DNA of 64,000 nt from an uncultured virus (IMG/VR IMGVR_UViG_3300008459_007659). Taxonomy: Duplodnaviria; Heunggongvirae; Uroviricota; Caudoviricetes. Positions 9,843 through 61,659 of the stretch are shown here, piece by piece. A program made the translations under genes and the position numbers. The stretch's first letter is position 1. The number at the start of each line of letters is the position of its first letter. The stretch spans positions 1 to 64,000 of IMG/VR virus record IMGVR_UViG_3300008459_007659, one strand, 5' to 3'. A model generated the notes under the pieces. That model searched no databases and was not told the origin of the DNA. It saw only the letters and a program-made list of their open reading frames with translations.

Positions 9843-9843
9843 A

Positions 9844-12578: not shown

Positions 12579-12583
12579 CTACT

Positions 12584-14459: not shown

Positions 14460-14462
14460 TAT

Positions 14463-16027: not shown

Positions 16028-16036
16028 ATATTAATT

Positions 16037-18197: not shown

Positions 18198-18201
18198 AAT
18201 T

Positions 18202-19636: not shown

Positions 19637-19642
19637 GAACTT

Positions 19643-20266: not shown

Positions 20267-20272
20267 ATTAAA

Positions 20273-20857: not shown

Positions 20858-20889
20858 ATTTTATTTTATTTTATTTTATTTAATATTAT

Positions 20890-24185: not shown

Positions 24186-24883
24186 TTTAATTCTTTTAAT
24201 TTTTTAATTGCGTCAACTAAAACAACAACATCCTTTTCACAATATTCAGATATTTCTTTTAATTTTTGTTCTTCCCAATAAGCACTATGAACTTTATCTC
24301 CAGTTACTTCCCCATCTTTTGGTGTTGGTATATCAAGACAAGAACACATCAAATCTAATGAACCAATTGATGTATAAGCTCCGTATTGCCAAATTTCTTT
24401 GGTATCAATGGCTTTAACTTCCCAAGGTTTTGTATCATATGAAGGAAGAAGTTTTGATGGCATAATACCATTAATAATCATTCTTTTTGCCATCATAGGA
24501 ATATCAAAATTCTTTAAATTATGCCCACAAAGATAAAAATCTAATTTTTGACATCTGTCTAAAAGATTTCTTACTTGAAGTAGTAATTCTTTTTCATCGT
24601 CTCCTGAAAATGTTTGTTTTTTTATGTCTCCGTTATCCATAACAAATGCCATAGACACACAAACAATTTTTGCAAATTCAGGAACAAGAGCTGCTCGTTT
24701 TTTAAACACCTCATCCTTAGTTAATCCATTATCTTCAGGAAACCTTTTTTGAAACCAATCAAAATATTTGTCAAACTGATTTGCAATACTTGGACTAAAT
24801 CTTTCACAAGATTCATAATCAGGACATCCACCAACCGTTTCAATATCCAAGAATAAAATTTTTGTAATAGGAATATTAATCAT
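24182..24883 (-). CDS. PolB-like 3'-5' exonuclease (DnaQ/RNase H fold)
   Basis: LDIETV, GHNLKNFDIP, YCEKDV (ExoI-III). Confidence 0.85.
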   Translation of the reverse strand: MINIPITKILFLDIETVGGCPDYESCERFSPSIANQFDKYFDWFQKRFPEDNGLTKDEVFKKRAALVPEFAKIVCVSMAFVMDNGDIKKQTFSGDDEKELLLQVRNLLDRCQKLDFYLCGHNLKNFDIPMMAKRMIINGIMPSKLLPSYDTKPWEVKAIDTKEIWQYGAYTSIGSLDLMCSCLDIPTPKDGEVTGDKVHSAYWEEQKLKEISEYCEKDVVVLVDAIKKLKELK

Positions 24884-24886
24884 AAA

Positions 24887-26104
24887 TTATTTAATTAAAG
24901 ATTTGTAAAATTCTGCTCGTGTTTTTGTTACATTTTTAAGATCATATCTATCTTTAACAGTTTCATATAATCTTTCACCCATATCAACAACCATATTTGG
25001 GTTGTCAACCAATTTTTTAACATATTTTGCCCAATCTCCATGATTTCTATTTTTATCCACTAATAAAGCGTTACCATCAGTAAAATTACCATTATTAAGT
25101 GAATGTTTTAAATCAATGGTATAAGGTCCAACATTAGATGCGATTAATGCTTTTTTATAGAATCCAGCTTCAATAACCTTAAGTTGTGACTTCATTCGGT
25201 TAAATACATGATCAACAATTGGTGCCAATGAAATATCAAACTTAGAGTAGTTCTTGGCATATGATGTGGTAGGTTTTGTCCAAACCCTTACATAGTTTTC
25301 ATTTTCCCAACCAAAATATTCTTCATCGTTAAATTTATCCAAAAATGTTTTATAGTTTGGTGTAATGATTTTATAATTGTTAGTAAATATACTCTCATAT
25401 TTAACCCAAACAGTTTCTTCAGGTCTAATTGGTCTTCTTGTCTCTTGTCCTGTCTGTTTGTTTATTTCAGTCACAGTTCCTCTTGTATCAAAACCACAAA
25501 CATAATATTGTAATTTATCTTGGATTGGTTTTAACTTTGACACCATTCCATCTAAAAGTTTTAAATCGTGAAGGTGAGATGATCCCCCTAACCAACCAAC
25601 TCTAATTTTTTCTGATGGTAATGTTGGTTGATTAAATTGTTCTTCGTTTGGATTAATTGCATTTGGTAAAACAAGAACATTTTTATTAAATTTTCTTATT
25701 TCATCGGCGAATAATTCTGTCGTTGTTGTGACATACGAACAAACTTTCATGTTTGCCGTTATCTTTTCGTGTATTTTATTTGTTACAATTAATTGATGTA
25801 TTGGGTGTTCCTTTGTTGGTAACCAATAATCATCAATATCCATAATAACAACAATACCATTTGATTTTAATTTTTCTATTAATGATGGAGTTTCTTCATA
25901 GTTATTCCCAATATTTCTATGGAAATGAACAATTTGATACTGACCCCAATATTTGTCATCATCAACTTTTGGTTGGAAGTCTATGTCAACATGAAAATCA
26001 TCAGAATATAAATTTTGTAACATTACATGGGGGTCAACGGATCTGTACTTACCAACACCTGAACCATCAGATGGGAGTACTAATACTTTAATTTTTTCTT
26101 TCAT
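24887..26104 (-). CDS. GT-B (GT4-like) glycosyltransferase
   Basis: DIDDYW, VGWLGG..H..D, DISLAP, FNRMKSQLKVIEAG. Confidence 0.75.
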   Translation of the reverse strand: MKEKIKVLVLPSDGSGVGKYRSVDPHVMLQNLYSDDFHVDIDFQPKVDDDKYWGQYQIVHFHRNIGNNYEETPSLIEKLKSNGIVVIMDIDDYWLPTKEHPIHQLIVTNKIHEKITANMKVCSYVTTTTELFADEIRKFNKNVLVLPNAINPNEEQFNQPTLPSEKIRVGWLGGSSHLHDLKLLDGMVSKLKPIQDKLQYYVCGFDTRGTVTEINKQTGQETRRPIRPEETVWVKYESIFTNNYKIITPNYKTFLDKFNDEEYFGWENENYVRVWTKPTTSYAKNYSKFDISLAPIVDHVFNRMKSQLKVIEAGFYKKALIASNVGPYTIDLKHSLNNGNFTDGNALLVDKNRNHGDWAKYVKKLVDNPNMVVDMGERLYETVKDRYDLKNVTKTRAEFYKSLIK

Positions 26105-35840: not shown

Positions 35841-36662
35841 ATGGTACAAAAAATTTTTTTTAACGCATCACTACCGAGAGCAGGATCAACATTACTGCAA
35901 AATATTCTAATGCAAAATCCTGATATTTATTCCACACCAACTTCTGGTGTTATAGAATTATTATCAACCGCAAGAACATTATATTCTAATGGAGATGCGT
36001 TTAAGGCTCAAGATTCTGAAACTATGAAATCAGGATTTAAAAATTTTTGTAACAAAGGTTTTTTTGGGTTTTATGATGGTGTTACTAATAGACCTTATGT
36101 TATGGAAAAAAGTAGAGGTTGGCTTGGATACCAAGATTTTGTTGAATTTTTTATGGATGAAAAACCTAAAATAATTTGTATGGTTCGTGATTTGAGATCA
36201 ATATTTTCATCAATGGAAAAAAATTATAGAAAAAATCCTGATAAAGATCCAAACATTGTTAATACTGTTGAATTAAAAAATATGACAACAACATCAAGGA
36301 TAGATCATTACTCAATTTCTCCCCCAATCGGACCATCATTAGAATGGTTATCGGAGACATTCCAAAGAAAACAAAATAAAGATATACTTTTTATCCGATT
36401 TGAGGATTTAACATCAAATCCTGATACTGAACTTAAAAAGATTTACAACTATTTAGAATTACCTTACTACCAACATGATTTTAATAATGTACAACAACTT
36501 ACATTTGAGAATGATATAATCCATGGGATTTTTGGTGATCACCAAATTAAATCTCAGGTAAAACCTGTTAAAGATGATTACGTTGATATATTAAGTCAAG
36601 AAAATTGTGATAGATTAAGACAACATTATGATTGGTTTTTTAGGACATTTAACTATTTATAA
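35841..36662 (+). CDS. PAPS-dependent sulfotransferase (RaxST/Sulfotransfer_3-like), copy 1
   Basis: LPRAGSTLL (5'-PSB loop), KSRGW, VRDLRSIFSS (3'-PB), RFEDL, HDFNNV. Confidence 0.85.
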   Translation: MVQKIFFNASLPRAGSTLLQNILMQNPDIYSTPTSGVIELLSTARTLYSNGDAFKAQDSETMKSGFKNFCNKGFFGFYDGVTNRPYVMEKSRGWLGYQDFVEFFMDEKPKIICMVRDLRSIFSSMEKNYRKNPDKDPNIVNTVELKNMTTTSRIDHYSISPPIGPSLEWLSETFQRKQNKDILFIRFEDLTSNPDTELKKIYNYLELPYYQHDFNNVQQLTFENDIIHGIFGDHQIKSQVKPVKDDYVDILSQENCDRLRQHYDWFFRTFNYL

Positions 36663-37931: not shown

Positions 37932-40811
37932 ATGGGAAAAATAATTCTTAAAAGTAATGGTGTTGAGACACAAATAATCAACGTAACCGATTTTACCGCA
38001 TTAAGTGGAGAATCAAATGTTTACGTTTTAGGTATTAACGATAACGGAGATGTTTTAGAACAATTTAATCCTGATGGTTCAGTAATCAAATTTGATAACA
38101 GTGGTGATAAAATCACTCAAGGAGTTTATAACGATAATACAGGAACTTTAACACTTACCGATTTAACAGGTGGAACTTTAACCGTTACAGGTTTTACAAC
38201 AGGATCAACTGAAATATACATAACAGGTGGTACATATTCCGCAAATACTATAACTTTTACAAATAATACGGGAGGAACATTTAATGTTACAGGTATTACA
38301 TCTGTATATGAAGTAGGTTCAGGAAGTAGTTCCGTCCAATTAGTGGGTGTTAGTGGTTCGGCAATTGGGGATTATTCTGTAGTAAGTGGAGGATTTAATA
38401 ATACAACTTTTGGTGACTGCTCAAGTATTGTCGGGGGTTCAAATAACCTAATAACTGGACCAACAGGAATTGTGAATTCAACGTATAACGGGATATATAG
38501 TGGGAGTACATTTAGTGGTTATTATGGAAGTTATTCACCATCATCAACATTATCAGGTTTAGGAACTGGTGCAACATTCTCATTTTATTTTAACCCACCA
38601 GGAACATTAAGTAATGTTTATGTTAATAATAACGGTAAGAATTACATTAATAATGATACTGTAACAGTACTTGGAAATGTCTTTGGCGGAACAATAGGAA
38701 CAGATAATGTTACATTCCAAATTGGAACAGTTAATGCTCCGTCTAATAGTTTTATTGGTAGTGGGGAATTTAATACAATTTCAGCATACTACGGTTGTTC
38801 TGTAATTGTCGGTGGTGAAAATAATAGAACTTACGATGGTTATGATTCTGTTAAAAATAACTTTATTGGTGGGGGATGTAATAATACTTCTAGTGGATAC
38901 TTCTCAACGGTTGTTGCGGGTAGAAACAATTGTTCTTTTGGTGATTGTGCCTTTGTTGGTGGTGGTTGTGGAAACCGAGCATATAGTAGATCAACAATCG
39001 CTGGTGGTAGAAGAAATACCGCAGGTATATCAGGAGGAGTTAATTCTGTAAATATTTTGGGTTCTTACACAGGTACTGGAGTTTCTCAAGGAACATATAG
39101 TGTTTATACAAATAATGTTATAAGTTCAGGAATTGGTTTAAGTTTATTAATTACTTTTGATAATTCTGGTGTTACTACAAATACCCAAGTTGAAAATAAT
39201 GGTAACTTATATAACACTTCCGATCAAGTTATTGTTCCAGGAAATTTATTTAATGGTGGAACATCACCATTAAATGATATTATTTATGAGATTACTGGTA
39301 CATTTACAAATTCTTACGCATCAATTATTGGTGGTTGTGGAAACAGATCTATTGGTGAGTATTCAACCATAAGTGGTGGTTATCGTAATACCGCATCAGG
39401 ATATGTATCAACAATAAGTGGTGGTTATTGTAATACCGCATCATCACAATACACGGTAATTGCTGGTGGTTGTTGTAATGAATCAAGAAAAAATTCATCA
39501 ACAGTAAGTGGTGGTAGAAGTAATACAGTTGATAACGAATACGATACAATTGGTGGTGGATATAGAAATACAACATTAGTTAGTGGAAGTGCTTGTGGGG
39601 TATCAACAATAAGTGGTGGATACCTTAATACATCTGGAAACTATTATACATTTAATGGTGGTGGTTGTAATAATAAAACTTTAGGGGAATACTCATCAAT
39701 CGTTGGGGGTTGTAATAACCAAATTCTTTCAGGTTTTGTTGATGGTGTGAATTTTAATGCGGGTGATGCTTCCTCAATACCTAATAACACATACACCGTT
39801 AATCCTACAAATATTAGTGGTTATGGTGACGGACTTCAAATAAGTTTTGATGTAAATAGTGGTGTAGTAAGTAATATTAGTATATTAAATCCTGGTATAA
39901 GATATGAAAGTGGGAATCAAGTTTTAGTTCTTGGGACTAGTATTGGTGGTTCATCGGCAAACGATTTAACATTTGATATATCAAATGTTAAATCATCAAA
40001 TCATTCATTTATTGGTGGTGGTAGAGAAAATACAACATTAAGTGATTGTTCAACCATAAGTGGAGGTTATGAGAACACTGTCAGCGGAAATTACGGATCT
40101 ATAGGTGGTGGAGCAAACAATACAATATCAACATATTCTGATTACGCAACAATCGGTGGAGGTGACGACAATACAATATTATCGGGTGAAGCACCAACAA
40201 TATCAGGTGGTGAAAACAATACAGTTAGTGGTCGTTATTCAACCGTTGGGGGTGGTAATTACAATGTAATAGAATCAATAACATCAAGTAATTATACTCA
40301 ATACGCATCAACAATTGGTGGAGGTTCTTGTAATACAATTTCATCATATAGTGGGTACTATGATATGTATGGTAATACAATTGCTGGTGGTACTTGTAAT
40401 ACAACGGTATCTTCAGAATACAACGGACAAACCATTAGTGGGGGATATAGGAATATAACAATGTCTAAATTCTCAACAGTTGGCGGTGGGTGTAACAACA
40501 CATCAAGTGGTGATTATTCATTTATTGGTGGTGGTAGAAGTAACACATCAAGTAGTAATTACTCTATGATTCTTGGTGGTAATTCTAACACGACAATTGG
40601 TATAAGAAGTGCGGTTGTTGGTGGACAAAACATTATTGCAACAGATGATGATATGGTTTATATGGCAAATGCCAATATTCAGTCATCCGGATATATTTAT
40701 TTTGGAGATGTGAACACAGACGGATCTTGGAGAATGAGAATATCTGGTACAACATTTATAATAGAAAAAAGAGTTGGTGGTTCTTGGGTAACATCAGGAA
40801 CATTTGTATAA
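37932..40811 (+). CDS. Fibre/adhesin with Gly-Gly beta-solenoid repeats and 3 inserted modules
   Basis: ~15-aa S[TS]I[SG]GGxxN[TR]xSG repeats; C-terminal DGSWR..ISG...EKRV.G.W. Confidence 0.7.
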   Translation: MGKIILKSNGVETQIINVTDFTALSGESNVYVLGINDNGDVLEQFNPDGSVIKFDNSGDKITQGVYNDNTGTLTLTDLTGGTLTVTGFTTGSTEIYITGGTYSANTITFTNNTGGTFNVTGITSVYEVGSGSSSVQLVGVSGSAIGDYSVVSGGFNNTTFGDCSSIVGGSNNLITGPTGIVNSTYNGIYSGSTFSGYYGSYSPSSTLSGLGTGATFSFYFNPPGTLSNVYVNNNGKNYINNDTVTVLGNVFGGTIGTDNVTFQIGTVNAPSNSFIGSGEFNTISAYYGCSVIVGGENNRTYDGYDSVKNNFIGGGCNNTSSGYFSTVVAGRNNCSFGDCAFVGGGCGNRAYSRSTIAGGRRNTAGISGGVNSVNILGSYTGTGVSQGTYSVYTNNVISSGIGLSLLITFDNSGVTTNTQVENNGNLYNTSDQVIVPGNLFNGGTSPLNDIIYEITGTFTNSYASIIGGCGNRSIGEYSTISGGYRNTASGYVSTISGGYCNTASSQYTVIAGGCCNESRKNSSTVSGGRSNTVDNEYDTIGGGYRNTTLVSGSACGVSTISGGYLNTSGNYYTFNGGGCNNKTLGEYSSIVGGCNNQILSGFVDGVNFNAGDASSIPNNTYTVNPTNISGYGDGLQISFDVNSGVVSNISILNPGIRYESGNQVLVLGTSIGGSSANDLTFDISNVKSSNHSFIGGGRENTTLSDCSTISGGYENTVSGNYGSIGGGANNTISTYSDYATIGGGDDNTILSGEAPTISGGENNTVSGRYSTVGGGNYNVIESITSSNYTQYASTIGGGSCNTISSYSGYYDMYGNTIAGGTCNTTVSSEYNGQTISGGYRNITMSKFSTVGGGCNNTSSGDYSFIGGGRSNTSSSNYSMILGGNSNTTIGIRSAVVGGQNIIATDDDMVYMANANIQSSGYIYFGDVNTDGSWRMRISGTTFIIEKRVGGSWVTSGTFV

Positions 40812-40833
40812 AAAATTAAAAAAAAAATAAAAT

Positions 40834-43734
40834 ATGGGATTTATAAGTGATAGTATATCGGGAACAACAATAAGTGGTGGAACTTTTTATGGTGATGGAT
40901 CGGGTCTAACTGATGTGTCATTAAACGATATTTTAACAGCATCAGCGATTCTTGGTGTAAATATAAACACGTCAAGTGATTACTTAGGTATTACAGCTAT
41001 TGACACATTTGATGATGAATCATCAAATTATATAAGTTGGACAAATGGATCAAACCAAGGAACTGGTTTTAATCCTTGGGTTATATCAACACAACCAAAT
41101 ACAGGTGTTTTTTTAGGAAATCCGGCTTCAGATGGAATGGGAACAACTGGTATTGGGACAAACGCATTCGCTTTATTTGCAACTGACGGATCAAACTATG
41201 TATCAACATCAAGAACATTTACAACACCTTTAAGTGTCGGTGAAGTGTTTTCTTTTTATTGGGCAATTAATTTTGATGCAAATGGTGGAAATAAAGGTTT
41301 TGATTTAAAAGCTGGTGGTGTAACAATATTTAATGCAAATAATAATAATACATCAACAATTACCTCAAATTTATCAGCACCATATAATGTTGTTGATGGT
41401 GGTTATGGGACAACACCAATGCTTGTAACATTAACAAGAGACTCGTCAACACAATATACAATAACAATAACATCAAGAAGTGGTGGTCCAACATATTCAG
41501 CACCAATAAATTCTTCATTAGCAATTAATGAATTAAGTTTTTATTGTGGAGCACAAAGTGATGGATCAGGACAAAGAAATTTATATTTTAATAAATTACA
41601 AATAACACAAAATGTAAGTTTAAATAAAGTTTCTGTTGATGAATTAAAAATCGCATTAAACGTTGGTGATATATTATATTCGGCAGGAACTGGAACCGAC
41701 TCAACTGTAAGAGTAGACAATGGAAATTTTGCAAATGGTAACTGCTCAATTGTTGCTGGAGGAAGTGGAAATATTAGTGATAGTCAATATTCAACAATCG
41801 GTGGTGGATGTAATAACACAATAAATAATTTTACAACAAATTCTAACTATTATTCGGTAGTTGGGAATTTAATTGGTGGGGGTAATCGTAATACAATTGA
41901 TTCTAATACGTTAAATGATGCCGATGTTGGTGGATCAGTAATTGGTGGTGGTTATGTAAATCAATTGATTTCACCTTTTTATGGTTTCAACACGGTTAAT
42001 GGTGGGGTTTTAAATAGAACATTTTTTGATTATAGTACAATTGGTGGTGGAGCAATCAATGTTAACTTAGATTCGTTTACAACAATCGGTGGTGGAGCAT
42101 TTAATACAAACTCAAGTTATACATCAACAATCGGTGGTGGTAATAATAATACAATTGGAACTTTATCTTCTTATTATAATGATCCTATTATTGGTCAAAC
42201 TATAGGTGGTGGATCTTGTAATACAATGTCATCTTATAGTGCTCAGTATTATAATGGTGGTAGTACAATTAGTGGTGGATATTGTAACACAACAGTTTCT
42301 TCATATTATGGAGGGCAAACTATATCAGGAGGGTTTAATAATATAACATCAAGTGATTATGCAACAGTTGGTGGAGGGGTTAGAAACACATCAAGTGGTT
42401 ATTATTCAACTGTAAGTGGTGGGATTAACAATACATCAAGTTGTGGTGGTTCATTTATTGGTGGTGGTTGTAACAACACATCAAGTTGTAATTATTCTAC
42501 CGTAAGTGGAGGTTATAGAAATACATCAAGTTGTTGTAATTCAACAATAGGTGGTGGTAGAAGTAACACAGTAAGTTCTTGTTATTCAACTGTTAGTGGG
42601 GGTCGTAACAACGTATCCGGAATTAGCGGAACTATATCAGGAATTTATGATCAAACATATAATGGAGGAACATTTAGTGGTTATTATGGGTCATATTCAC
42701 CAACCTCAACATCTTCAGGGTTTGGTAATGGAGGAACATTCTCATTTAATTTTAATACGGGAACATTGTCTAACGTTTATGTTAACACAATTGGTCAAAG
42801 TTATGTTCAAGGAGATACGTTATTATTTGACGGTACTTTATTTGGTGGATCAAGTGGTACTGATGATGTGACAATTAAAATTAATGTGACATCAAGTGGT
42901 AATAATTCTACCGTAAGTGGAGGTTATTGTAATACATCAATTGGTAGTAGTTCAACAGTAAGTGGTGGTAAAAGAAACACATCAAGTGGTAGTTATTCAA
43001 CAATTGGAGGTGGTAATGTTAACACATCAAGTTGTTATTACTCAACCGTTGGTGGTGGTAGAAATAACACGTCAAGCGATTATTGTTCAACCATTGGTGG
43101 TGGTTTTAATAATAAAATTAATCCAGCATCATCCGATAGTGGTACTATATACGCATCAACAATAGGAGGAGGATCTTGTAATACAATCGGAACATTATCG
43201 GCATATTATGATGTATATGGTGCAACAATAGGTGGGGGAACTTGTAATACAGTTGGGACATTATCCTCTTATTGTGGTGTGTATAGCTCAACAATTGGTG
43301 GAGGTTCCTTTAATATAATATCATCCTACAGTGGATACTATGAAATGTATGGTAATACAATAGCTGGTGGTACTTTTAATACAACGGTATCTTCAGAATA
43401 CAACGGACAAACAATTGGTGGAGGTCGTGGTAATGTAACAAGGTATAATTATTCAACTGTAAGTGGGGGTAGAACTAACACATCAAGTGGTTATTATTCA
43501 ACAATTGGTGGTGGTATAAATAACACATTAATAAATGGTTGTTCGGCAATACTTGGAGGAATATGTAATACGTCACAACACGATTGTTCATTTATTGTTG
43601 GTAGTGGTATATGTAGTACTGCCGCAAACACAACACACGTAAATTGTCTACATTTCAGTAACATACCTACATCGTCAGCAGGACTTGCACCAGGTACTGT
43701 ATATAGTGATTCGTGTGTATTAAAAATAGTATAA
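40834..43734 (+). CDS. Second Gly-Gly repeat fibre/adhesin
   Basis: TISGGTFYGDGS start; lectin-like N-domain; STIGGGxxNT repeats; C-terminal NIPTSSAGLAPGTVY...LKIV. Confidence 0.7.
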   Translation: MGFISDSISGTTISGGTFYGDGSGLTDVSLNDILTASAILGVNINTSSDYLGITAIDTFDDESSNYISWTNGSNQGTGFNPWVISTQPNTGVFLGNPASDGMGTTGIGTNAFALFATDGSNYVSTSRTFTTPLSVGEVFSFYWAINFDANGGNKGFDLKAGGVTIFNANNNNTSTITSNLSAPYNVVDGGYGTTPMLVTLTRDSSTQYTITITSRSGGPTYSAPINSSLAINELSFYCGAQSDGSGQRNLYFNKLQITQNVSLNKVSVDELKIALNVGDILYSAGTGTDSTVRVDNGNFANGNCSIVAGGSGNISDSQYSTIGGGCNNTINNFTTNSNYYSVVGNLIGGGNRNTIDSNTLNDADVGGSVIGGGYVNQLISPFYGFNTVNGGVLNRTFFDYSTIGGGAINVNLDSFTTIGGGAFNTNSSYTSTIGGGNNNTIGTLSSYYNDPIIGQTIGGGSCNTMSSYSAQYYNGGSTISGGYCNTTVSSYYGGQTISGGFNNITSSDYATVGGGVRNTSSGYYSTVSGGINNTSSCGGSFIGGGCNNTSSCNYSTVSGGYRNTSSCCNSTIGGGRSNTVSSCYSTVSGGRNNVSGISGTISGIYDQTYNGGTFSGYYGSYSPTSTSSGFGNGGTFSFNFNTGTLSNVYVNTIGQSYVQGDTLLFDGTLFGGSSGTDDVTIKINVTSSGNNSTVSGGYCNTSIGSSSTVSGGKRNTSSGSYSTIGGGNVNTSSCYYSTVGGGRNNTSSDYCSTIGGGFNNKINPASSDSGTIYASTIGGGSCNTIGTLSAYYDVYGATIGGGTCNTVGTLSSYCGVYSSTIGGGSFNIISSYSGYYEMYGNTIAGGTFNTTVSSEYNGQTIGGGRGNVTRYNYSTVSGGRTNTSSGYYSTIGGGINNTLINGCSAILGGICNTSQHDCSFIVGSGICSTAANTTHVNCLHFSNIPTSSAGLAPGTVYSDSCVLKIV

Positions 43735-44035: not shown

Positions 44036-44779
44036 ATGTTTGTAACTGTATGTAATAAAGAATATCTTATTGGTTTTGAGGTAATGTTAAAATCTCTTGT
44101 GGAGAATAACCCAAGAGTTATTGAGGAAGATATCCCATTCACAATTATTAGTAATGATTTAACATCAGATGATTTAATAGTTGCGAGAAAAATTCATAAT
44201 AATATTTCATTAAAAACCTATGATTCATCAAAATATTATGAAATTGATGAGTTAAAAAAACAACAGATGTCGTTTGGTGATTACGCCAAATATGAAATAT
44301 TTTCTATTGAGGATGTTGATAAAATCATATTTCTTGATTCCGATACTTTAATATTAGGGAACATTGATAGATTAATTGACTCTGATTATAATTTTGGTGC
44401 TGTTAGAGAATTGTATATTGACCAATACAATACCGGAGTAATAGTCATTTCAAAGAAATATTTAAACCCTAAAATCACAAATGATTTAATCAATTTAACA
44501 AAAGTTTATGGAATAACTGAACATTCCGATCAGGATATTATAAATCATTACTTTGAAGACGTTATTAAAGATTTCCCAATTGAATATAATTTTTTAAAAA
44601 CATACAATAAAAAAGTATTCCAAAACACAGGGTTACCTAAGTACATCAAAATATTACACTACATAGTTAAAAAACCTTGGCAACAAAAAGAATTAGTGTC
44701 TTTAGAAGAAGGGACTTTATGGACTGAAAGATATTGGTTTGATTATTATTCAAAAATACTTAAACTAAAAAATGATTAA
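44036..44779 (+). CDS. GT8 glycosyltransferase
   Basis: FLDSDTL, YNTGV, DQDIIN, EYN, LHY..KPW. Confidence 0.85.
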   Translation: MFVTVCNKEYLIGFEVMLKSLVENNPRVIEEDIPFTIISNDLTSDDLIVARKIHNNISLKTYDSSKYYEIDELKKQQMSFGDYAKYEIFSIEDVDKIIFLDSDTLILGNIDRLIDSDYNFGAVRELYIDQYNTGVIVISKKYLNPKITNDLINLTKVYGITEHSDQDIINHYFEDVIKDFPIEYNFLKTYNKKVFQNTGLPKYIKILHYIVKKPWQQKELVSLEEGTLWTERYWFDYYSKILKLKND

Positions 44780-45680
44780 AAGACATTACGATAAAAGTGA
44801 GTTATTAAACTACGTTGAGTTAGATAAGGATACAACAACATTAGAGAATAAAGTAATATTATTACATTTAGATTCTTTTTGTTTGGGGGATACTATTTGT
44901 TTTGCGTCATTTATTGATTCATTTATAGATTACCACAACCCAAAAAAAGTTATTGTATCCACATTTTTTCCTCATTTATTAATATCAAATAATGAAAAAT
45001 GTGAAATTATTAACGCCAATCAACAAAAAAAATTAACAATAGATAAATTAATTGATGTTGGTTATGATAAAAATAATATGTCACATACTTTGGGTGGTAT
45101 GTTGTATGCAACCAAAGATACAATGATGATACCACAATCAACCGAACCAAAAAAACCAACATTAATACCAAAATTTAAAAACGTTAAATCAAATAAAATA
45201 ACTATTGCTCCCGAATCATTAAAATCAATTGCTCAATGGGATAGAGATGGTTGGCAGTTAGTTGTTGATTCTTTGGTTAATTCTGGTTTTGAGGTTTTTA
45301 ATGTCTCTTACGAAGATACATTAAAATTAAATAATGTTAAAGGATATCACGGATTTGATGATATCAACGTCTCGTTAAATCACATATTAGAATCAAGATT
45401 GTTTATTGGGCTATCTTCGGGATTATCTTGGTTGGCATGGGCGTATGATGTTCCAGTTGTTATGATTTCAGGTTTTACAAAAGAACACAATGAATTTGAT
45501 TGTTTTAGAGTTATTAATAAAAACGTTTGTAATGGGTGTTTTAATTTATTTCCAAATATTAGCACTAAATGTCCGATATTTTTAAATACAGAAAGAGAAA
45601 ACGAATGTCATAAAAAAATAACACCAAAAATGGTTATAGAACAAATAAACAAGGCAATTATGTTTACAAACAATAAATAA
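44772..45680 (+). CDS. Aah/TibC-like (autotransporter O-heptosyltransferase family) glycosyltransferase
   Basis: LGDTI, FIGLSSGLSWLAWA..VPVVMISGF, and a four-Cys tail CNGC...CP...EC.K.IT. Confidence 0.75.
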   Translation: MIKRHYDKSELLNYVELDKDTTTLENKVILLHLDSFCLGDTICFASFIDSFIDYHNPKKVIVSTFFPHLLISNNEKCEIINANQQKKLTIDKLIDVGYDKNNMSHTLGGMLYATKDTMMIPQSTEPKKPTLIPKFKNVKSNKITIAPESLKSIAQWDRDGWQLVVDSLVNSGFEVFNVSYEDTLKLNNVKGYHGFDDINVSLNHILESRLFIGLSSGLSWLAWAYDVPVVMISGFTKEHNEFDCFRVINKNVCNGCFNLFPNISTKCPIFLNTERENECHKKITPKMVIEQINKAIMFTNNK

Positions 45681-45697
45681 AATATTATTATAAATTT

Positions 45698-46585
45698 ATG
45701 GAAAAAAAATATTCAATATTTCATATAGAAGGTGGGTTAGGAAAACATATATGTGCAACTGCGGTTGCAAAATGTATTAAGAATAATTTCCCTGAAAGAG
45801 AGTTGATTGTGGTATGTGCTTACCCTGAAATATTTTTAAATTTAGAATTTATTGATAGAGTGTATAGAATTGGTAACACACCATATTTCTACGATGACTT
45901 CATTAATGATAAAGATTCAAAAATATTTAAACATGAACCTTATTTCACTGATGAACACATACATAAAAAATTACCTCTAATTGAGAATTGGTGCAAACTG
46001 TTTAATTTGAATTATTTAGGAGAGAAACCTGAATTAGTATTTAATCTTAGGCAAAAACAAACAGGTATTAACAAATGGAAAAGAGATAAACCTGTGATGG
46101 TAATCCAAACAAACGGAGGACCCTTAAATGATCAACCTTATCCATATTCTTGGACTAGAGATATTCCGTATGATGTTGCTCAACATTTAGTTAATTATTT
46201 TTCACCACAATATCACATAATTCAAATATGTAGAAATGAAAAAAATGCAATTGCAGGATGTGAAGTTATTACAGAACAAATGTCTAACATGGAATTGTTT
46301 TCACTATTGTTTATGTCTGAAAAAAGAATTTTAATTGATTCTTGTTTGCAACACGCATCTGCGGCAATGGGAATACCATCAACTGTTTTATGGATAGGTA
46401 CATCGCCAGTTATGTTTGGTTATAACACACACAAAAATATTATTGCAAAATTACCTAACACGGTGAAATTACCTGATAGTTATTTGTTTGATTATAATTT
46501 TAATGGGTTAACACATGAATGTCCTTTAATAGATACCGATATTTTTGATATCGACGAAATAATATATAATATAAATAATTTTTAA
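45698..46585 (+). CDS. GT9-like glycosyltransferase, copy 2
   Basis: Full-length paralogue of 36956..37834. Confidence 0.7.
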   Translation: MEKKYSIFHIEGGLGKHICATAVAKCIKNNFPERELIVVCAYPEIFLNLEFIDRVYRIGNTPYFYDDFINDKDSKIFKHEPYFTDEHIHKKLPLIENWCKLFNLNYLGEKPELVFNLRQKQTGINKWKRDKPVMVIQTNGGPLNDQPYPYSWTRDIPYDVAQHLVNYFSPQYHIIQICRNEKNAIAGCEVITEQMSNMELFSLLFMSEKRILIDSCLQHASAAMGIPSTVLWIGTSPVMFGYNTHKNIIAKLPNTVKLPDSYLFDYNFNGLTHECPLIDTDIFDIDEIIYNINNF

Positions 46586-46586
46586 T

Positions 46587-47408
46587 ATGGTAGAAAAGAT
46601 ATTTTTTCAAAGCTCATTACCAAGAGCTGGTTCAACATTATTACAAAACATAATGGGGCAAAATCCTGATTTTTATGTTACACCAACTTCAGGTGTTTTA
46701 GAACTTGTATATGCCGCAAGAAACAATTACACTAACTCGCCTGAATTTAAGGCTCAAGATTCTAAATTAATGAAAGATGGGTTCATATCATTTTGTAAAA
46801 ATGGTATGGAGGGATTTTTTAATGGTGTAACAGATAAACCTTATGTTTTAGATAAAAGTAGAGGGTGGGGAGTTCACTATGGTTTTTTAAATTCTTTTTA
46901 TCCTGAACCTAAAATAATTTGTATGGTTAGAGATCCAAGATCAATTTTTGCGTCAATGGAGAAAAATTTTAGGAAAAGTCAACATTTAGATTCAGGATTG
47001 GTTAATCATGCTCAAATGGCAGGAACAACGACTGAAAAGAGAATTGATATATGGGCTCAATCACAACCTGTTGGTTTGGCTTTAGAAAGATTACAACAAA
47101 TTTTTAGAGAAGGGGTAAACGACAAAATATTGTTTGTTAGATTTGAGGATTTAACCTCAAGTCCTAAAACAGAAATAGAAAGAATTTATACCTATTTAGG
47201 ATTACCGTATTATGAAGGTCATGACTTTAATAACGTAACTCAAATTACAAAAGAAGATGATTCAATTTATGGTATTTACGGTGATCATGTCATTAAACAA
47301 CGAATAGAACCTACCAAAAAAGATTATCGGGATATCTTAGGTGATGATGCTTCTAATTGGATAAAAAACAGATACAAATGGGTATTTAATCAATTTGGTT
47401 ATTTTTAA
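46587..47408 (+). CDS. PAPS-dependent sulfotransferase, copy 2
   Basis: Full-length paralogue of 35841..36662; LPRAGSTLL, VRDPRSIFAS. Confidence 0.85.
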   Translation: MVEKIFFQSSLPRAGSTLLQNIMGQNPDFYVTPTSGVLELVYAARNNYTNSPEFKAQDSKLMKDGFISFCKNGMEGFFNGVTDKPYVLDKSRGWGVHYGFLNSFYPEPKIICMVRDPRSIFASMEKNFRKSQHLDSGLVNHAQMAGTTTEKRIDIWAQSQPVGLALERLQQIFREGVNDKILFVRFEDLTSSPKTEIERIYTYLGLPYYEGHDFNNVTQITKEDDSIYGIYGDHVIKQRIEPTKKDYRDILGDDASNWIKNRYKWVFNQFGYF

Positions 47409-47413
47409 TTATT

Positions 47414-47872
47414 ATGGAGAATAAAATTTATTGGTTTACCGGTCAGCCAGGTGCGGGAAAGACAGTTTTGTCTTTAATGTTAAAAACGGTTTTAGAACTT
47501 GACAATAGTAATAAAGTATTTCATATTGATGGAGATGAATTAAGAAGTCTTTTTAATAATCAAAAATACGGTAGAGAAGGTCGTGAAGAGAATATAAAAC
47601 GAGCACAAGATATTGCTAAATTTATATTAGCTCAAGGACATAGTGTTGTTGTTAGTTTGGTTGCACCATACAAAGAACTTAGAGAAAGTCTTAAACAAGA
47701 GTTGGGTAATTTGCTTGTTGAGTTTTATGTTCACACTACAGATATTAGAGGTAGAGAACATTTTCACACCGACGAATATGAAAAACCAACAGAAAATTAT
47801 TTAGATATTAATACAACTAATGTTGACCCACAAATATCACTAAACCAAATAATAGAACACATTTCAAAATGA
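47414..47872 (+). CDS. cysC: Adenylylsulfate (APS) kinase
   Basis: WFTGQPGAGKT P-loop, IDGDELR, GREENIKR, VSLVAPY, YEKP. Confidence 0.85.
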   Translation: MENKIYWFTGQPGAGKTVLSLMLKTVLELDNSNKVFHIDGDELRSLFNNQKYGREGREENIKRAQDIAKFILAQGHSVVVSLVAPYKELRESLKQELGNLLVEFYVHTTDIRGREHFHTDEYEKPTENYLDINTTNVDPQISLNQIIEHISK

Positions 47873-48333
47873 ATTGGGAAGTAAAAAATCACGGAGGAGA
47901 ACCTACAACAAACGAAAGTAAAAAATATGCAATATTTGTTGGTAGATACCAACCATACCATTATGGACATATTGAGTTAATACAACAAAAATTAAATCAA
48001 GGAATTCCTGCTCTTATTATGGTTAGGGATATTGAACCTGACGAAAAAAATCCATTTACCACTGAACAAACGGTAAAGATGATTGAGGAATATCATAACT
48101 CAAAAGGTGATGATGTTAAAGTTGTTATTATTCCTGATATTGAATCTGTTAATTACGGTAGAGGTGTTGGGTATGAAATAAATGAATTCACACCACCAGA
48201 TAATATTGGATTCATATCTGCAACAGGAATAAGAAACTCAATTGCTAAAGGTGACGACAAATGGAAAGATATGGTGGACGAATCAATACAAGATTATATA
48301 ATTAATTTTTTAACATATGCAAATACAAAGTAA
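47869..48333 (+). CDS. Small HxGH nucleotidyltransferase (cytidyltransferase-like)
   Basis: GRYQPYHYGH, NPF, ISATGIR; ATGA overlap with cysC. Confidence 0.8.
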   Translation: MNWEVKNHGGEPTTNESKKYAIFVGRYQPYHYGHIELIQQKLNQGIPALIMVRDIEPDEKNPFTTEQTVKMIEEYHNSKGDDVKVVIIPDIESVNYGRGVGYEINEFTPPDNIGFISATGIRNSIAKGDDKWKDMVDESIQDYIINFLTYANTK

Positions 48334-48757
48334 AACTTATCAAATCAGATTTAACACAGATTCAAAAACTGATGATGAAAGATGGAGATTAATTGAAAAC
48401 GGTAACGAGACATTAGTTTCAGACATCATTATTGATGGACACACTCAAACAACTAAAGATTGGTTACCGGAAATTAATGATTATAAATGGCATGTTAGTT
48501 GTGTTGGTTATTGTAGTATTGAGAATAATGTTGCATATATAAAAACCATAAAAGAAGAATCTGTATTAATTAGACATATTTTAAAAACAGTTAGTTATAG
48601 ATTTTTAGGAACCTTAACTACAGTTGTTGTTGCATATTCGTTAGGGGCAACAATTGAGGTTTCGGCATTGCTTGGTGTTGGTGAACTTATTATGAAACCA
48701 TTTATATATTTTGGTCACGAAAGATTGTGGTATAAATATATAAGAATTAAAAAATAA
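48317..48757 (+). CDS. DUF2061-like membrane domain protein with N-terminal extension
   Basis: KTVSYRFLGT...IYFGHERLW. Confidence 0.7.
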   Translation: MQIQSKTYQIRFNTDSKTDDERWRLIENGNETLVSDIIIDGHTQTTKDWLPEINDYKWHVSCVGYCSIENNVAYIKTIKEESVLIRHILKTVSYRFLGTLTTVVVAYSLGATIEVSALLGVGELIMKPFIYFGHERLWYKYIRIKK

Positions 48758-48785: not shown

Positions 48786-49280
48786 ATGGAGCAATCAATT
48801 ACTATACAAAGTATTAATTATGACGGTGAACTTGCTAATATCTTATTTAAACCAGATATTAGCGAAACCGTATATAATTTAGGTGATCAGTTTTTACCTT
48901 TTGTGTTTAATTCAAACACAATTAACCCTAATTTAGAAGTATTTGGGACATATACTATATTAATTTTATTTAATAAATGCCCATATTTTTTAAATGTCCC
49001 AAGACTTACTCCTACACCGACACCTACAAATACGCCAACTAGAACACCAACACCTACACCAACACCTACGATTACACCTACACCTACGTTCGATCCTTGT
49101 AAGGTACCAACACCAACACCAACGGTTACTACAACGCCTACGATTACACCTACAAATACACCAACTCCAAGTGTGACTTGTACAAATCCTTGTGGTTGTC
49201 CTGAACCAAGTAAAACACCAAAACCAAGTAAAACACCAAAACCGACACCTACTTGTACAAGTCCTTGTGGTTGCCCATAA
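48786..49280 (+). CDS. Pro-Thr-rich mucin-like putative virion protein
   Basis: Long (TP)n tracts, twin CTxPCGCP motifs, TATTTAT upstream. Confidence 0.7.
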
Positions 49281-49333
49281 ACAATTTAATTTTTGATTAA
49301 ATGTTTTATTGTATTTATATAATGTAATTTAAA

Positions 49334-51271
49334 ATGATACATCAAATTTCAATAACAGGAGTAACAGGAACTCCACCATATTCAATATCGGTATGTGATT
49401 CAACATACACATATTGTTATTTGGTTACAGGTTCAACAACAATACCACCAACATTTACTTTTGATGTTCCATCACCTTTAGATGGAGTTAATAATTTAAT
49501 TGTAAAAATAACTGATTCTACAGGATGCGAATACTTTGAACCTTATAGTTGTCCTCCTACACCGACACCAACACCTACTCTAACACCGACACCAACACCT
49601 ACCCCAACCGATTTGTGTTATTGTTTAATGGCAGTTAATTCATCCATGATGGATGGTTCGTTTGATTATATAGATTGTGATGGATTATCACAATTAAATA
49701 TTCATGTCCCAAGTGGAATAACATATTATACTTGTGGATCTAACCCGACAAACATAATTAATTTATCAATCGGAATAGGTGATTTATGTTCTTTATCCAG
49801 TTGTAATCCACCTTTACCTTCATTATCGGCAACACCAACTCCTACTCCCACACCTTCGTCATTACCTTTTGCGTTTATTTCAGTTTGGTCGGCATCAACT
49901 ACAATTGAACTTCCGTATTCACCAACTGGAACTTATTCAGGAATAATAGATTGGGGTGATGGTAATACATCTGTTAACTCATATGCAAATAGAACTCATA
50001 CATATTCGATAACAGGTGATTATACTGTAACAATTACAGGTACAATTGAGGGTTGGGATTTTAATAATTATGCGACATCTTATAAAAACAATATAAAAGA
50101 AATATTAAGGTGGGGTCCACTAAAAGGAGAATCAGGTTCAAACAATGGCATGTTCTATGGTTGTCAAAATTTAATTATAACAGGTGTAACAGATACTATT
50201 AATTTAATTGGAATAACAAATTTGAGTAGTATGTTTTTTGGTTGTACTAGTTTAACTACCGTAAATAATATGGATAGTTGGGATGTATCATCTGTTAATA
50301 ATATGTCGGGTATGTTTACATTGACATCTAATTTCAATCAACCAATAGGAAGTTGGGATGTTTCAAATGTTACAAATATGGCATCTATGTTCTCGTTATC
50401 CACAAACTTTAACCAAAACATCGGAAGTTGGGATGTTTCAAACGTTACCAATATGTTGGCTATGTTTTTAGCCGCGGCAAATTTCAATCAACCAATAGGA
50501 GGATGGGATGTTTCAAATGTTATCAATATGTCAGCTATGTTCGCAGGTTCTCAAAATTTCAATCAACCAGTAGGAAGTTGGGATGTTTCAAATGTTACCA
50601 ATATGTCGTCTATGTTTGGTAATGCAACAAACTTCAATCAGACAATTGGGGGTTGGGATGTGTCAAATGTTACCAATATGGGTAATATGTTTGGTAATGC
50701 AACAAACTTTAACCAAAACATCGGAAGTTGGGATGTTTCAAATGTTACCGATATGAATGGTATGTTTTTATCGGCAATAAACTTTAACCAAAACATCGGA
50801 AGTTGGGATGTTTCAAATGTTACCGTTATGAATGGTATGTTTAATAATGCTACAAGTTTTAACAATGGAGGTTCTCCAAGTATAAATTTATGGAATGTTT
50901 CAGGTGTGACAAATATGTCATTTACTTTTTATACCGCAACAAATTTCAATCAACCAATAGGAGGATGGGACGTATCTAATGTAACAAATATGGAAAATAT
51001 GTTATCATTGGCAACAGTTTTTGATCAACCAATCGGAGGATGGGATGTTTCATCAGTAACTAATATGAGTTTTATGTTAAATGGTACGTCATTATCAACA
51101 CCTAATTATGATTTACTACTCAATGGATGGGCATCATTAGGAGGTTCATTACAACCCTCAGTTAATTTTAATGCCGGTACTTCTGTATATACGATTGCAA
51201 CGGCTGGTGTGAGTAGAAATTATTTGACAGGAACCAAGTTATGGAATATAACTGACGGGGGAGGAATTTAA
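49334..51271 (+). CDS. Pro-Thr + PKD-like + DUF285/BspA-type repeat protein
   Basis: (PT)n tracts, IDWGDG..HTY, about 10 25-aa FNQxIGxWDVSNVTNM repeats. Confidence 0.8.
   Translation: MIHQISITGVTGTPPYSISVCDSTYTYCYLVTGSTTIPPTFTFDVPSPLDGVNNLIVKITDSTGCEYFEPYSCPPTPTPTPTLTPTPTPTPTDLCYCLMAVNSSMMDGSFDYIDCDGLSQLNIHVPSGITYYTCGSNPTNIINLSIGIGDLCSLSSCNPPLPSLSATPTPTPTPSSLPFAFISVWSASTTIELPYSPTGTYSGIIDWGDGNTSVNSYANRTHTYSITGDYTVTITGTIEGWDFNNYATSYKNNIKEILRWGPLKGESGSNNGMFYGCQNLIITGVTDTINLIGITNLSSMFFGCTSLTTVNNMDSWDVSSVNNMSGMFTLTSNFNQPIGSWDVSNVTNMASMFSLSTNFNQNIGSWDVSNVTNMLAMFLAAANFNQPIGGWDVSNVINMSAMFAGSQNFNQPVGSWDVSNVTNMSSMFGNATNFNQTIGGWDVSNVTNMGNMFGNATNFNQNIGSWDVSNVTDMNGMFLSAINFNQNIGSWDVSNVTVMNGMFNNATSFNNGGSPSINLWNVSGVTNMSFTFYTATNFNQPIGGWDVSNVTNMENMLSLATVFDQPIGGWDVSSVTNMSFMLNGTSLSTPNYDLLLNGWASLGGSLQPSVNFNAGTSVYTIATAGVSRNYLTGTKLWNITDGGGI
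50270..51080 (+). repeat. 75-nt coding tandem repeat (DUF285-type)
   Basis: Recurrent tgggatgtttcaaatgttac blocks at mostly 75-nt spacing. Confidence 0.85.
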
Positions 51272-60539: not shown

Positions 60540-61631
60540 TTATTTCTTCATTCTTAATTCGTATAACTCATTGACGAATTCCCAATTAACACAATTCCAA
60601 AAGTTTTTAATGTACTGATCCCTCTTGTTTCTGTATCTCAAATAATAAGCATGTTCCCAAACATCAAGTCCAAGAAGTGGATAACCACCACCCTCAACAA
60701 CATTCATTAATGGATTGTCTTGATTTGGGGTTGACATAATTTTTAATCTACCTGTTTTAGTTAATACTAACCAAGCCCACCCTGAACCAAATCTATCTAA
60801 TGCGGTTTTATTAAATTCTTCTTTAAATTTGTTAAATGAACCGTATTGTTTTTTTATTTTCTCAAAAACAATACCTTTAGGTGTTTGTTTTGTTGGGGAT
60901 AACATTTTCCAAAATAATGCATGGTTGAAAGCTCCTCCAGCATTGTTTCTAACTTTAGTATCAAATTTACTAATGGATTTAACAATGTCCTCAAGTTCCA
61001 TATCACCTTTTCTACTTGATAAAGCGTCGTTTAATTTTTTTACATATCCTTTGTAGTGTTTGTTATAATGAATATCCATTGTCTCAGGATCTACAAATTT
61101 TTTAATTGCTGAATATGAATAAGGTAATTTCTCAATACCTATTTTTTTCATTTCAGTTAAAAACTGTTTTTGGATGTTTTCTTTTTCTTTAAGGACTATC
61201 TGTTCTGATATGATATCTAATTTATTGGATATTGATTTAAACCCCTCAAATATTGTTTTTTCATAATTTGGATAGTCTTTCTCAAACATTTTAACAATTT
61301 GACCCGCAAACGCATTTGCTTCATCTTCATTTTTCCCACCAATGTCCGGACCTTTATCTCTATCTAAAACTCCGTGTTGATATTCGTGAACCCATTCGTG
61401 AGCAAGAGTTCTCATAATATCTCTATTTAATCTATTTTTTGCGAGTATCTTTAATATATGTTTGTTAGTCCTACTACCAGTACTCATTTTACCATATCTT
61501 TCACCCGTAAAAACTATTTCTATATCATCAACCAACGGCAATTTTTTACTTAAGAATTTTATAAAATCCTCAAATAATTTGTAATCTTTTTTTGGGATAT
61601 CCGATTTAAGATATTTTATTGAAACTTTCAT
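60540..61631 (-). CDS. sodA: Fe/Mn superoxide dismutase (Mn-type signature) fused to an N-terminal HExxH domain
   Basis: LPYSY, HYNKH, GGAFNH, FGSGWAW, NQD, DVWEHAYY; N-domain AHEWVH...EDEANAFA. Confidence 0.88.
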   Translation of the reverse strand: MKVSIKYLKSDIPKKDYKLFEDFIKFLSKKLPLVDDIEIVFTGERYGKMSTGSRTNKHILKILAKNRLNRDIMRTLAHEWVHEYQHGVLDRDKGPDIGGKNEDEANAFAGQIVKMFEKDYPNYEKTIFEGFKSISNKLDIISEQIVLKEKENIQKQFLTEMKKIGIEKLPYSYSAIKKFVDPETMDIHYNKHYKGYVKKLNDALSSRKGDMELEDIVKSISKFDTKVRNNAGGAFNHALFWKMLSPTKQTPKGIVFEKIKKQYGSFNKFKEEFNKTALDRFGSGWAWLVLTKTGRLKIMSTPNQDNPLMNVVEGGGYPLLGLDVWEHAYYLRYRNKRDQYIKNFWNCVNWEFVNELYELRMKK

Positions 61632-61659
61632 TAACAATAAATATCTTCAAATGAAAGTT

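Follow-up and report, generated by a model that had tools for sequence, protein, structure and literature searches.

A putative ATP sulfurylase of the NMNAT/PPAT branch, paired with an APS kinase-type protein in large marine phages and some bacteria

The window analysed here is the first 64 kb (64,000 nucleotides) of the 130.5-kb record of an uncultured virus (IMG/VR IMGVR_UViG_3300008459_007659), which has a guanine-cytosine (GC) content of 31% and is rated 44% complete by CheckV. It possesses a block of genes (44036-48757) which we interpret, with a probability of roughly three in four, as a phage sulfation module, in which a small nucleotidyltransferase (NT) would act as an ATP sulfurylase (EC 2.7.7.4) and supply adenosine 5′-phosphosulfate (APS) to the APS kinase-type protein (KIN) encoded directly upstream of it. 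The NT family appears to be a third class of ATP sulfurylase, non-orthologous to and standing beside Sat and CysDN, a view that is based on sequence comparison, genomic context and predicted fold. Its range covers large marine phages, Dadabacteria-type bacteria, streamlined marine Flavobacteriales and some Nitrospirales.

In the proposed route, NT would adenylylate sulfate (ATP + sulfate → APS + PPi), and KIN, or CysC in relatives, would phosphorylate APS to 3′-phosphoadenosine 5′-phosphosulfate (PAPS), thereby pulling the unfavourable first step forward. The PAPS formed would then be used by the two sulfotransferases of the window, probably on a glycan produced by the neighbouring glycosyltransferases. 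We also consider it likely, with slightly more reserve than for the function of NT itself, that an NMNAT-like third sulfurylase class and an APS kinase together constitute a minimal phage PAPS synthase which has been exchanged with bacteria, where it has displaced Sat and CysDN in Dadabacteria-type bacteria and some Nitrospirales and forms the sole PAPS route of streamlined marine Flavobacteriales, with a DUF2061 protein as dedicated membrane partner in phages (NMNAT being nicotinamide mononucleotide [NMN] adenylyltransferase).

The NT family and its viral partners

NT possesses the motifs GRYQPYHYGH (residues 25-34) and ISATGIR (residues 116-122), within which the QPYHYGH and ISATGIR pointed out in an earlier note on this DNA are found, and it matches the CTP_transf_like family (PF01467) with an E-value of 9.7e-8 (32.7 bits, cut-off 21). 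This match, together with HxGH, ISxTxxR and a Rossmann-like fold, places it in the HxGH (HIGH) superfamily. Residues H31/H34 and S117-R122 are kept across 33 family members, and the conserved elements of the family are F-G-R-x-Q-P-x-H-x-G-H, a loop with I-P-D-I-E-S-V-N-Y-G-R-G-V-G-Y, and I-S-A-T-x-I-R. The loop containing YGRGVGY is specific to the NT family, and its invariant Arg is a candidate for anion binding.

The AlphaFold2 model of NT, built from 33 family members, has a mean predicted local distance difference test score (pLDDT) of 90.2 and consists of a single Rossmann-like domain, with no PUA-like N-terminal domain followed by a catalytic domain of ~200 aa. Its best match in a structural search was the NMNAT of M. 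jannaschii (1f9a; Z 15.3, root-mean-square deviation [rmsd] 2.5 over 133 residues), with phosphopantetheine adenylyltransferase (PPAT) second (Z 13.9) and NadM also found (Z 13.1). The Sat of T. thermophilus (1v47) gave Z 10.6 with an rmsd of 3.8 over 135 residues, other Sat structures gave 7-9, and HldC (5x9q) gave 6.0. A family-profile search of solved structures likewise returned NMNAT (E 4.5e-16, profile positions 13-82 only) along with PPAT, nicotinate mononucleotide (NaMN) adenylyltransferase and NadR, among others; no Sat was present among the best 60 of 77 matches (E <= 1). With Foldseek against the PDB, only NMNAT and PPAT-type chains occur among the matches listed. The NCBIfam search matched 18 families at E <= 0.01, of which RfaE, HldC (TIGR02199) and TagD are not members. 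The best of these matches are models of archaeal NMNAT/NadM, all of them sub-threshold (48.4 vs 181.2 and 52.1 vs 127) and aligned to the N-terminal half only (positions 2-77/167 and 3-94/175).

The earlier note had suggested that NT may be a miniature Sat. Common membership of a superfamily with Sat is borne out by the fold comparison, with NMNAT standing nearer, while no match to PF01747 was found for NT at E <= 0.01. When its Sat motifs are read, HxxH is kept, RN is absent, and YGRGVGY is found at the place one might expect for a GRD-type loop. Two distant family members do match PF01747 weakly (P0227, 26.0 bits; P0181, 23.8 bits). As the nearest relatives of NT are NMNAT and PPAT, among which 154 aa is a normal length, it is not a shrunken Sat; judged from sequence and modelled fold, it belongs to the NMNAT/PPAT branch of the HxGH superfamily and is of ordinary size for it.

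The family is large: of 2910 candidates close to NT in length, 2907 clusters (90% identity) match at E <= 0.001, and 1234 representatives at 50% identity match NT, 405 of them at 1e-10. No Pfam or NCBIfam model is specific to it, and the source names for its members are only ‘cytidyltransferase-like protein’, or ‘adenylylsulfate kinase’ when fused. Six members (P0128, P0160, P0171, P0192, P0227 and P0181) have Cys-rich N-terminal extensions with the pattern GIDR..D..N..PCC..CN..K. A Sat-like PUA domain was considered for these extensions and rejected, as they are Cys-rich, resemble HNH endonucleases by eye and have no family match; an HNH-type homing-endonuclease module upstream of NT may have been inserted and read through.

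KIN matches APS_kinase (PF01583) with an E-value of 5.4e-19 (69.2 bits, cut-off 21.1) over profile positions 4-110 of 152 only, and all 24 of its solved-structure matches are APS kinases or APS-kinase domains. Its P-loop, DGD and two Arg (G10, G15, K16, D39-G40-D41, R44 and R57) are invariant with respect to canonical CysC. Compared with bacterial CysC it is without ~18 lid residues (the KGLYKKAR..FTGI segment), and it falls below the full-length equivalog cut-off (TIGR00455, 67.3 vs 138.7). KIN is proposed to convert APS to PAPS. Prediction of a KIN-NT complex (two alignments, controls not run) gave a score of 0.00, a value that carries no weight for or against contact between the two.

The pairing of NT with an APS kinase is widespread in viruses. 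Among 98 confirmed IMG/VR loci with an NT homologue, ORFs were called in the best 80 and searched, with flanks of 6 kb, using the window proteins and a canonical viral CysC. A gene of the APS-kinase type is adjacent or fused to NT in 78 of the 80 loci, the contig ending directly upstream of NT in the two others. The kinase is a full canonical CysC with lid motif in 29 cases and a short lid-less form in 49, NT proteins of ~72% identity being paired interchangeably with either. Kinase-NT fusions, among them the 349-aa CysC-NT of L038, are found in 12 of the loci and a sulfotransferase lies inside the flanks in 27 of the 80. Because the pairing recurs to this extent, the arrangement is far beyond chance.

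Fusions, whose analysis together with co-occurrence the earlier note had proposed as a check, point the same way. A scan of the 63 sequences of at least 176 aa among the best 150 50%-identity representatives identified a PF01583 APS_kinase domain in 42, with 31 in the order kinase-NT and 11 in the order NT-kinase, so the fusion has arisen in both orders. Other fusions among the 63 are two of NT-DUF2061 and one of NT-DUF6717 (P0139, 7.8e-34). Of 120 longer NT homologues listed, 117 possess PF01583, while P0370 has a Sulfotransfer_2 domain (precomputed PF03567) instead of the kinase.

Relatives also occur in phages of soil and plant-associated bacteria. In Xylella, Xanthomonas and Stenotrophomonas phages the short-kinase-NT fusion constitutes PHROG 10255 (‘kinase’), examples being Xylella phage Bacata (L001:3555-5318) and Stenotrophomonas phage DLP_6 (L002:4590-5321), where the fusions are annotated ‘kinase’ or ‘adenylylsulfate kinase’. 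Two genes upstream of the Bacata fusion there is a weak Sulfotransfer_4 match (E 9e-4, below cut-off). In these soil/plant-pathogen phages, too, the mini PAPS synthase may be present. In four other viral loci (L006:5031-5996, L024:5037-5996, L046:5045-6001 and L047:4032-5204) the canonical CysC has a conserved C-terminal extension of ~120 aa (DFDGV...SSRP...YIDDRG); the L047 protein had no Pfam match beyond APS_kinase and DUF2061. By eye the extension is similar to haloacid dehalogenase (HAD) phosphatases, and it might be a 3′-phosphatase of 3′-phosphoadenosine 5′-phosphate (PAP), the role of CysQ.

The third gene of the group encodes the DUF2061 protein, which has a conserved beta-rich N-terminal domain of ~80 aa and a C-terminal two-helix membrane hairpin. 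The match to PF09834 (1.2e-12, 48.4 bits, cut-off 23.1) covers residues 88-138, its C-terminal third. DUF2061 genes were identified in 65 of the 80 viral NT loci, in three different gene orders, and DUF2061 is fused to CysC in L047 (with the further C-terminal extension) and to NT in P0167, P0251 and P0068. It is thus tied to the APS kinase-type partner and to NT by both neighbourhood and fusion. Its model has a pLDDT of 80.6, and a fold search with the whole model, which barely probed the N-terminal beta domain, gave helical-hairpin look-alikes only (best Z 6.2). No paper naming DUF2061 was about sulfur, judging from literature listings. As a guess, the protein might be the membrane anchor of the module or a route of entry for sulfate. 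No DUF2061 was found in the one Dadabacteria-type genome tested, and bacterial NT therefore does not need it. Four Flavobacteriales genomes (G259, G235, G210 and G010; L175-L178) have chromosomal tandem-DUF2061 proteins; in NT-bearing Flavobacteriales the tandem genes lie in the order rpoN - unknown - DUF2061x2 - rhomboid-like, with no sulfur link.

Occurrence of NT in bacteria

A search of bacterial contigs with an alignment of nine NT sequences gave 184 confirmed NT stretches. The best 80 of these are 63-77% identical to the window NT and belong to Dadabacteria/Thermodesulfobacteriota chromosomes, to metagenome-assembled genomes (MAGs) and single-amplified genomes (SAGs) of marine Flavobacteriales/Bacteroidetes, and to Nitrospirales MAGs.

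In the Dadabacteria-type class (that of genome G006), 114 genomes were compared at a requested completeness of at least 80%. Of these, 76 have NT, 18 have Sat and 13 have CysD; seven have none of the three and no genome has two together (Fisher p = 1.6e-21, a value for which the genomes count as independent although they are not). All 18 Sat genomes and 74 of the 76 NT genomes have CysH, which was identified in 100 of the 114 overall, and by coordinates sat adjoins cysH in the Sat genomes. Three Dadabacteria-type chromosomes (2.1-3.1 Mb) had no Sat, and their only PAPS_reduct members are CysH and, in one genome, DndC. This CysH scores as a thioredoxin-dependent APS reductase (241-263 vs cut-off 235.3) and adjoins a CysP-type sulfate permease, and canonical CysC is present in all three chromosomes. 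NT-bearing bacteria of this type therefore possess sulfate uptake, APS reduction and APS phosphorylation, but apart from NT they have no known source of APS.

Among 151 sampled Flavobacteriales genomes, NT was found in six. Each has a canonical CysC within ~600 bp of NT, and neither Sat nor any PAPS_reduct member (CysD, CysH) was found in any of the six. In one genome the order is CysC - NT - DeoC - CysQ, in a chromosomal setting with SprA, GcvH and TonB. With no known sulfurylase in these bacteria, their CysC would be left without substrate if NT did not supply it. One Bacteroidetes SAG has the gene of a second small HxGH enzyme (L095:9597-9995, 132 aa), similar to RfaE domain II/TagD (3.1e-14, below cut-off), between those for CysC and NT, with MetK and AhcY next.

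In Nitrospirales, NT occurs in a sulfur operon. All four MAG loci share the arrangement Rrf2 regulator | sulfite reductase(-TusA) - APS reductase (cysH) - NT - TrpD-like gene. The four NT-bearing genomes, from 101 sampled in the order, all encode a Sat-CysC fusion of 571-579 aa (translated) that otherwise closely resembles the bifunctional enzyme of Aquifex (E 6e-207). The QTRNPxH and GRDHA motifs of Sat are catalytic. They were read by alignment to the Aquifex enzyme and to the Penicillium Sat structure (QTRNPMH, GRDHA). At the two positions G009 (L174:316-2031) has QTQSLVH and EPNYA, G275 has QTRHPLH and GWDYA, and G283 has QTRHPLY and GQDYA; both motifs are intact in G279. The proteins with lost motifs (L174, L186 and L187, for G009, G275 and G283) have what is apparently a pseudo-enzyme Sat domain, beside an APS-kinase half that seems unimpaired. 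The APS-kinase P-loop is retained in all four Sat-CysC proteins, and both Sat motifs are kept in three of three NT-lacking Sat controls from the Dadabacteria-type class. This pattern fits a Sat domain which lost its function after takeover by NT and survived within an APS kinase.

Of 159 NT sequences, 128 distinct ones remained once identical copies and fragments below 110 aa had been dropped, and these were placed in a quick maximum-likelihood tree. All 58 Dadabacteria-type rows fall into a single clade (SH-aLRT 100), as do the four Nitrospirales rows (96), which are grouped with two Flavobacteriales MAG rows (99). The remaining nine Bacteroidetes rows and one Gammaproteobacteria row are interspersed among viral rows, and the window NT sits in a purely viral subclade. 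This mixed tree, along with 63-77% identity across phyla, suggests horizontal spread involving phages. The low GC content of the record and the closeness of its NT to those of Flavobacteriales make streamlined marine Flavobacteriales a plausible host, and hosts of this kind without Sat or CysDN would explain why a phage should carry the whole route.

Competing explanations for NT

The fusions, the operon context, the exclusivity with Sat and CysD and the decay of Sat motifs together support the suggestion of the earlier note that NT supplies APS. A number of observations weigh against it. The closest relatives of NT in sequence and in fold are NMNAT and PPAT rather than Sat. The RNP and GRDHAG motifs are absent from it, and it has none of the sulfate-binding motifs of Sat. 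The kinase of the window is lid-less and under the NCBIfam cut-offs, and the NT of Dadabacteria-type genomes lies amid Rdx, Leu/Phe-tRNA protein transferase and glutamine amidotransferase genes and in no sulfur operon. G279 has NT together with intact Sat motifs, so co-occurrence does exist. In Xylella and Stenotrophomonas phages the fusion has a NADAR-domain gene as its neighbour (seen in Bacata), a hint of NAD or ADP-ribose chemistry for that phage branch. In addition, most of the genomes compared are MAGs, and clades are non-independent samples.

The last of the functional points would sit well with NT being an NMN/NaMN adenylyltransferase, which together with the kinase would make up a NAD salvage pair like NadR, of riboside kinase and NMNAT, with which the phage maintains or rebuilds NAD. 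Archaeal NMNAT and NadM head the matches in NCBIfam and among solved structures, phages commonly encode NMNATs of the NadM type, and the Bacata fusion adjoins the NADAR-domain gene. We nevertheless hold this to be quite improbable, as the models cover only the N-terminal, ATP-binding half and score far below cut-off, and the partner is an APS kinase and not a riboside kinase, being a canonical CysC in 29 viral loci and in all bacterial CysC-NT pairs examined. NT is also exclusive with Sat/CysD and is found in a sir-cysH operon, and a canonical NadD above cut-off is encoded at another locus in five of five NT genomes tested, so that NT is not needed for NAD synthesis. Still less credence can be given to a sugar- or polyol-phosphate nucleotidyltransferase (HldC/RfaE-domain-II or TagD-like) feeding the GT9-like glycosyltransferases, the HldC-like form of which had been put forward in the earlier note. 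NT does lie within a glycosyltransferase block with two GT9-like genes, and the RfaE-domain-II-like enzyme of one Bacteroidetes locus lies between CysC and NT; this proposal found little support, however, as there is no RfaE, HldC or TagD among its NCBIfam matches, the HldC fold scores Z 6.0 against 15.3 for NMNAT, the constant partner in viral loci is the APS kinase and not a glycosyltransferase, and bacterial NT occurs without glycosyltransferase context. It is also unlikely, in our view, that NT acts in adenylyl-sulfate chemistry without being the sulfurylase, whether as an accessory or regulatory subunit, in APS/PAPS recycling or in adenylylating a different oxyanion, the APS then having some unrecognised origin. 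Fusions and neighbourhoods reveal a functional link to APS kinase and not the reaction itself, and NT has no Sat-type sulfate-binding motif, both of which would be in keeping with such a role. It would, however, leave unexplained why NT is present where Sat and CysD are absent while sulfate permease, APS reductase and CysC are kept, and why Sat motifs decay alongside NT, and no other candidate sulfurylase was seen. An ATP sulfurylase function for NT is the reading we favour.

Gene layout, significance and comparison with known systems

The layout described in the earlier note, a cysC overlapping a small nucleotidyltransferase gene by ATGA and followed by a DUF2061-like gene, was recovered in the ORFs of the window (Table 1). 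The ATGA at 47869-47872 comprises the stop codon of KIN and the start codon of NT, and there is a 17-nt overlap between the genes for NT and the DUF2061 protein. Upstream of KIN, the genes for GT8, two GT9-like/unknown glycosyltransferase-like proteins and a sulfotransferase follow one another closely, overlapping or spaced by a few bases. Relatives of the second glycosyltransferase-like gene (45698..46585) also adjoin a sulfotransferase in loci L016, L029, L031, L051 and L065-L067.

Table 1. Genes of the proposed sulfation module and a further sulfotransferase gene of the window
Feature	Position	Strand	Family matches
GT8 glycosyltransferase, opens the co-directional block	44036..44779	+	PF01501 1.9e-21
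GT9-like glycosyltransferase (weak)	44772..45680	+	PF01075 E 0.001, 18.9 bits, below cut-off 22
Glycosyltransferase-like protein	45698..46585	+	phrog_8954 1.4e-6, no Pfam match
Sulfotransferase, proposed PAPS consumer	46587..47408	+	PF13469 3.1e-23, PF00685 5.3e-13, phrog_27463 8.9e-40
KIN, 152-aa lid-less APS-kinase-type P-loop kinase	47414..47872	+	PF01583
NT, 154-aa HxGH/ISxTxxR nucleotidyltransferase, candidate ATP sulfurylase	47869..48333	+	PF01467
DUF2061 protein, 146 aa	48317..48757	+	PF09834
Second sulfotransferase, further proposed PAPS consumer	35841..36662	+	PF13469 5.4e-15, PF00685 3e-14

The 130.5-kb record encodes tail sheath, tail tube and baseplate proteins, a UvsX-like recombinase, a DnaB-like helicase and a ribonucleotide reductase, and on account of its tail, baseplate and replication genes the source virus is a large myovirus. 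An identical NT is present in a 304-kb IMG/VR record rated 100% complete, and the source phage is a myovirus of ~300 kb. The absence of sat and cysD from the window, as stated in the earlier note, extends to the whole 130.5-kb record, in which Sat (PF01747) and PAPS_reduct/CysD (PF01507) had no match; cysN, which the note had also listed as absent, was not searched for separately. Neither Sat nor PAPS_reduct/CysD was found in three NT-bearing phage genomes rated 95-100% complete, the 304-kb record included, and the sole weak match to a Sat profile in these near-complete genomes is the NT gene. A nucleotide search of a phage collection gave one short match of 72.5%, to an unannotated marine virus record.

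The sulfation block is flanked (37932-43734 and 48786-51271) by two repeat proteins of ~960 aa and the GGxxNT type, a Pro/Thr-rich protein of 164 aa and a DUF285 repeat protein of 645 aa (2.2e-106). These flanking proteins are possible fibre or surface proteins, and hence possible targets of glycosylation or sulfation. A further run of glycan genes on the minus strand (9039-26104) codes for several GT2 enzymes, a Fringe-like glycosyltransferase, three FkbM-type methyltransferases, a GDP-mannose 4,6-dehydratase and an epimerase/reductase, with genes for PhoH, dUTPase and a 3′-5′ exonuclease within or beside it; it represents a heavy investment of the phage in modified glycan. The window also has a gene for an Fe/Mn superoxide dismutase (60540-61637, minus strand), the product of which has an N-terminal extension of ~165 aa without family match.

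To our knowledge, Sat and CysDN are the only recognised enzyme classes that activate sulfate, and it is by their presence that sulfate assimilation is scored in pathway databases and genome-based models. The case described here is that of the known route of sulfate activation, the opening step of which would be carried out by a new enzyme family. No report of a sulfurylase function for NT-type proteins was found in full-text literature, the coverage of which does not extend to subscription journals. One paper considered as a possible prior report (PMC13036487) was set aside, as it concerns a genuine cyanobacterial NMNAT.

Should NT be confirmed as a sulfurylase, an apparent pathway hole would be closed in 74 of the 114 genomes of one bacterial class, and calls of sulfur auxotrophy in marine MAGs would change. 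Streamlined marine Flavobacteriales, thought to be unable to activate sulfate, would have a PAPS route via NT, which would explain how CysC works in members of this group without a known sulfurylase. For large ocean phages, the auxiliary metabolic functions would include a self-sufficient module for PAPS formation and sulfation. It would also mean that an NMNAT-type scaffold has been recruited to an inorganic anion and that a resident Sat domain decays after displacement, and a compact PAPS generator, of two genes or a single fused gene, would become available for biotechnology.

Compared with known systems, NT would share with Sat/Met3 (PF01747) its proposed reaction and the HxxH superfamily, and Sat too has been found fused to APS kinase. 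NT is, however, less than half the size of Sat and has no PUA-like domain. Sat has the active-site motifs QxRNPxHxxH and GRDHAG; NT has GRYQPYHYGH in place of QTRNPxHxxH, and YGRGVGY as against GRDHAG. With CysDN, NT would have the reaction and pathway position in common, and the two are exclusive in the class examined. The fold of CysDN is unrelated, comprising a PAPS_reduct-type ATP pyrophosphatase and a GTPase, whereas NT has no GTPase partner and would rely for its pull on the APS kinase or APS reductase coupled to it.

Two further comparisons concern the nearest relatives of NT. Archaeal NMNAT/NadM (TIGR01527, NF002243) are the closest solved relatives and have GRxQPxHxGH, ISxTxIR and a similar size; NT differs in scoring far under their curated cut-offs, in its sulfur-pathway neighbours and in the presence of a separate NadD. 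In the coenzyme A (CoA) pathway, PPAT is followed by dephospho-CoA kinase, the two being fused in CoA synthase. This pair (CoaD/CoaE) has the two-step logic proposed for NT and KIN, that of an HxGH adenylyltransferase followed by a P-loop kinase acting on a 3′-OH, but its acceptor is 4′-phosphopantetheine instead of sulfate and its kinase is of another family.

A Sat-like/APS-kinase fusion is deposited as PDB 3cr8 under the title ‘Hexameric APS kinase from Thiobacillus denitrificans’. It is a precedent for a Sat-like domain kept within an APS kinase, and the motif loss in the Sat-CysC proteins of the Nitrospirales order is comparable; the parallel is with this neighbour protein and not with NT. 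The Sat-like domain of the T. denitrificans protein is reportedly inactive. The metazoan PAPS synthases, which are described as bifunctional (PMC3734648), are alike in order and logic to the 31 kinase-NT fusions and to KIN/NT of the window, each being a single sulfate-to-PAPS unit. They differ in that their sulfurylase is a Sat-type domain of ~400 aa, as against the NMNAT-like 130-150 aa of the NT family, for which the reverse order, NT-kinase, is also found (11 cases).

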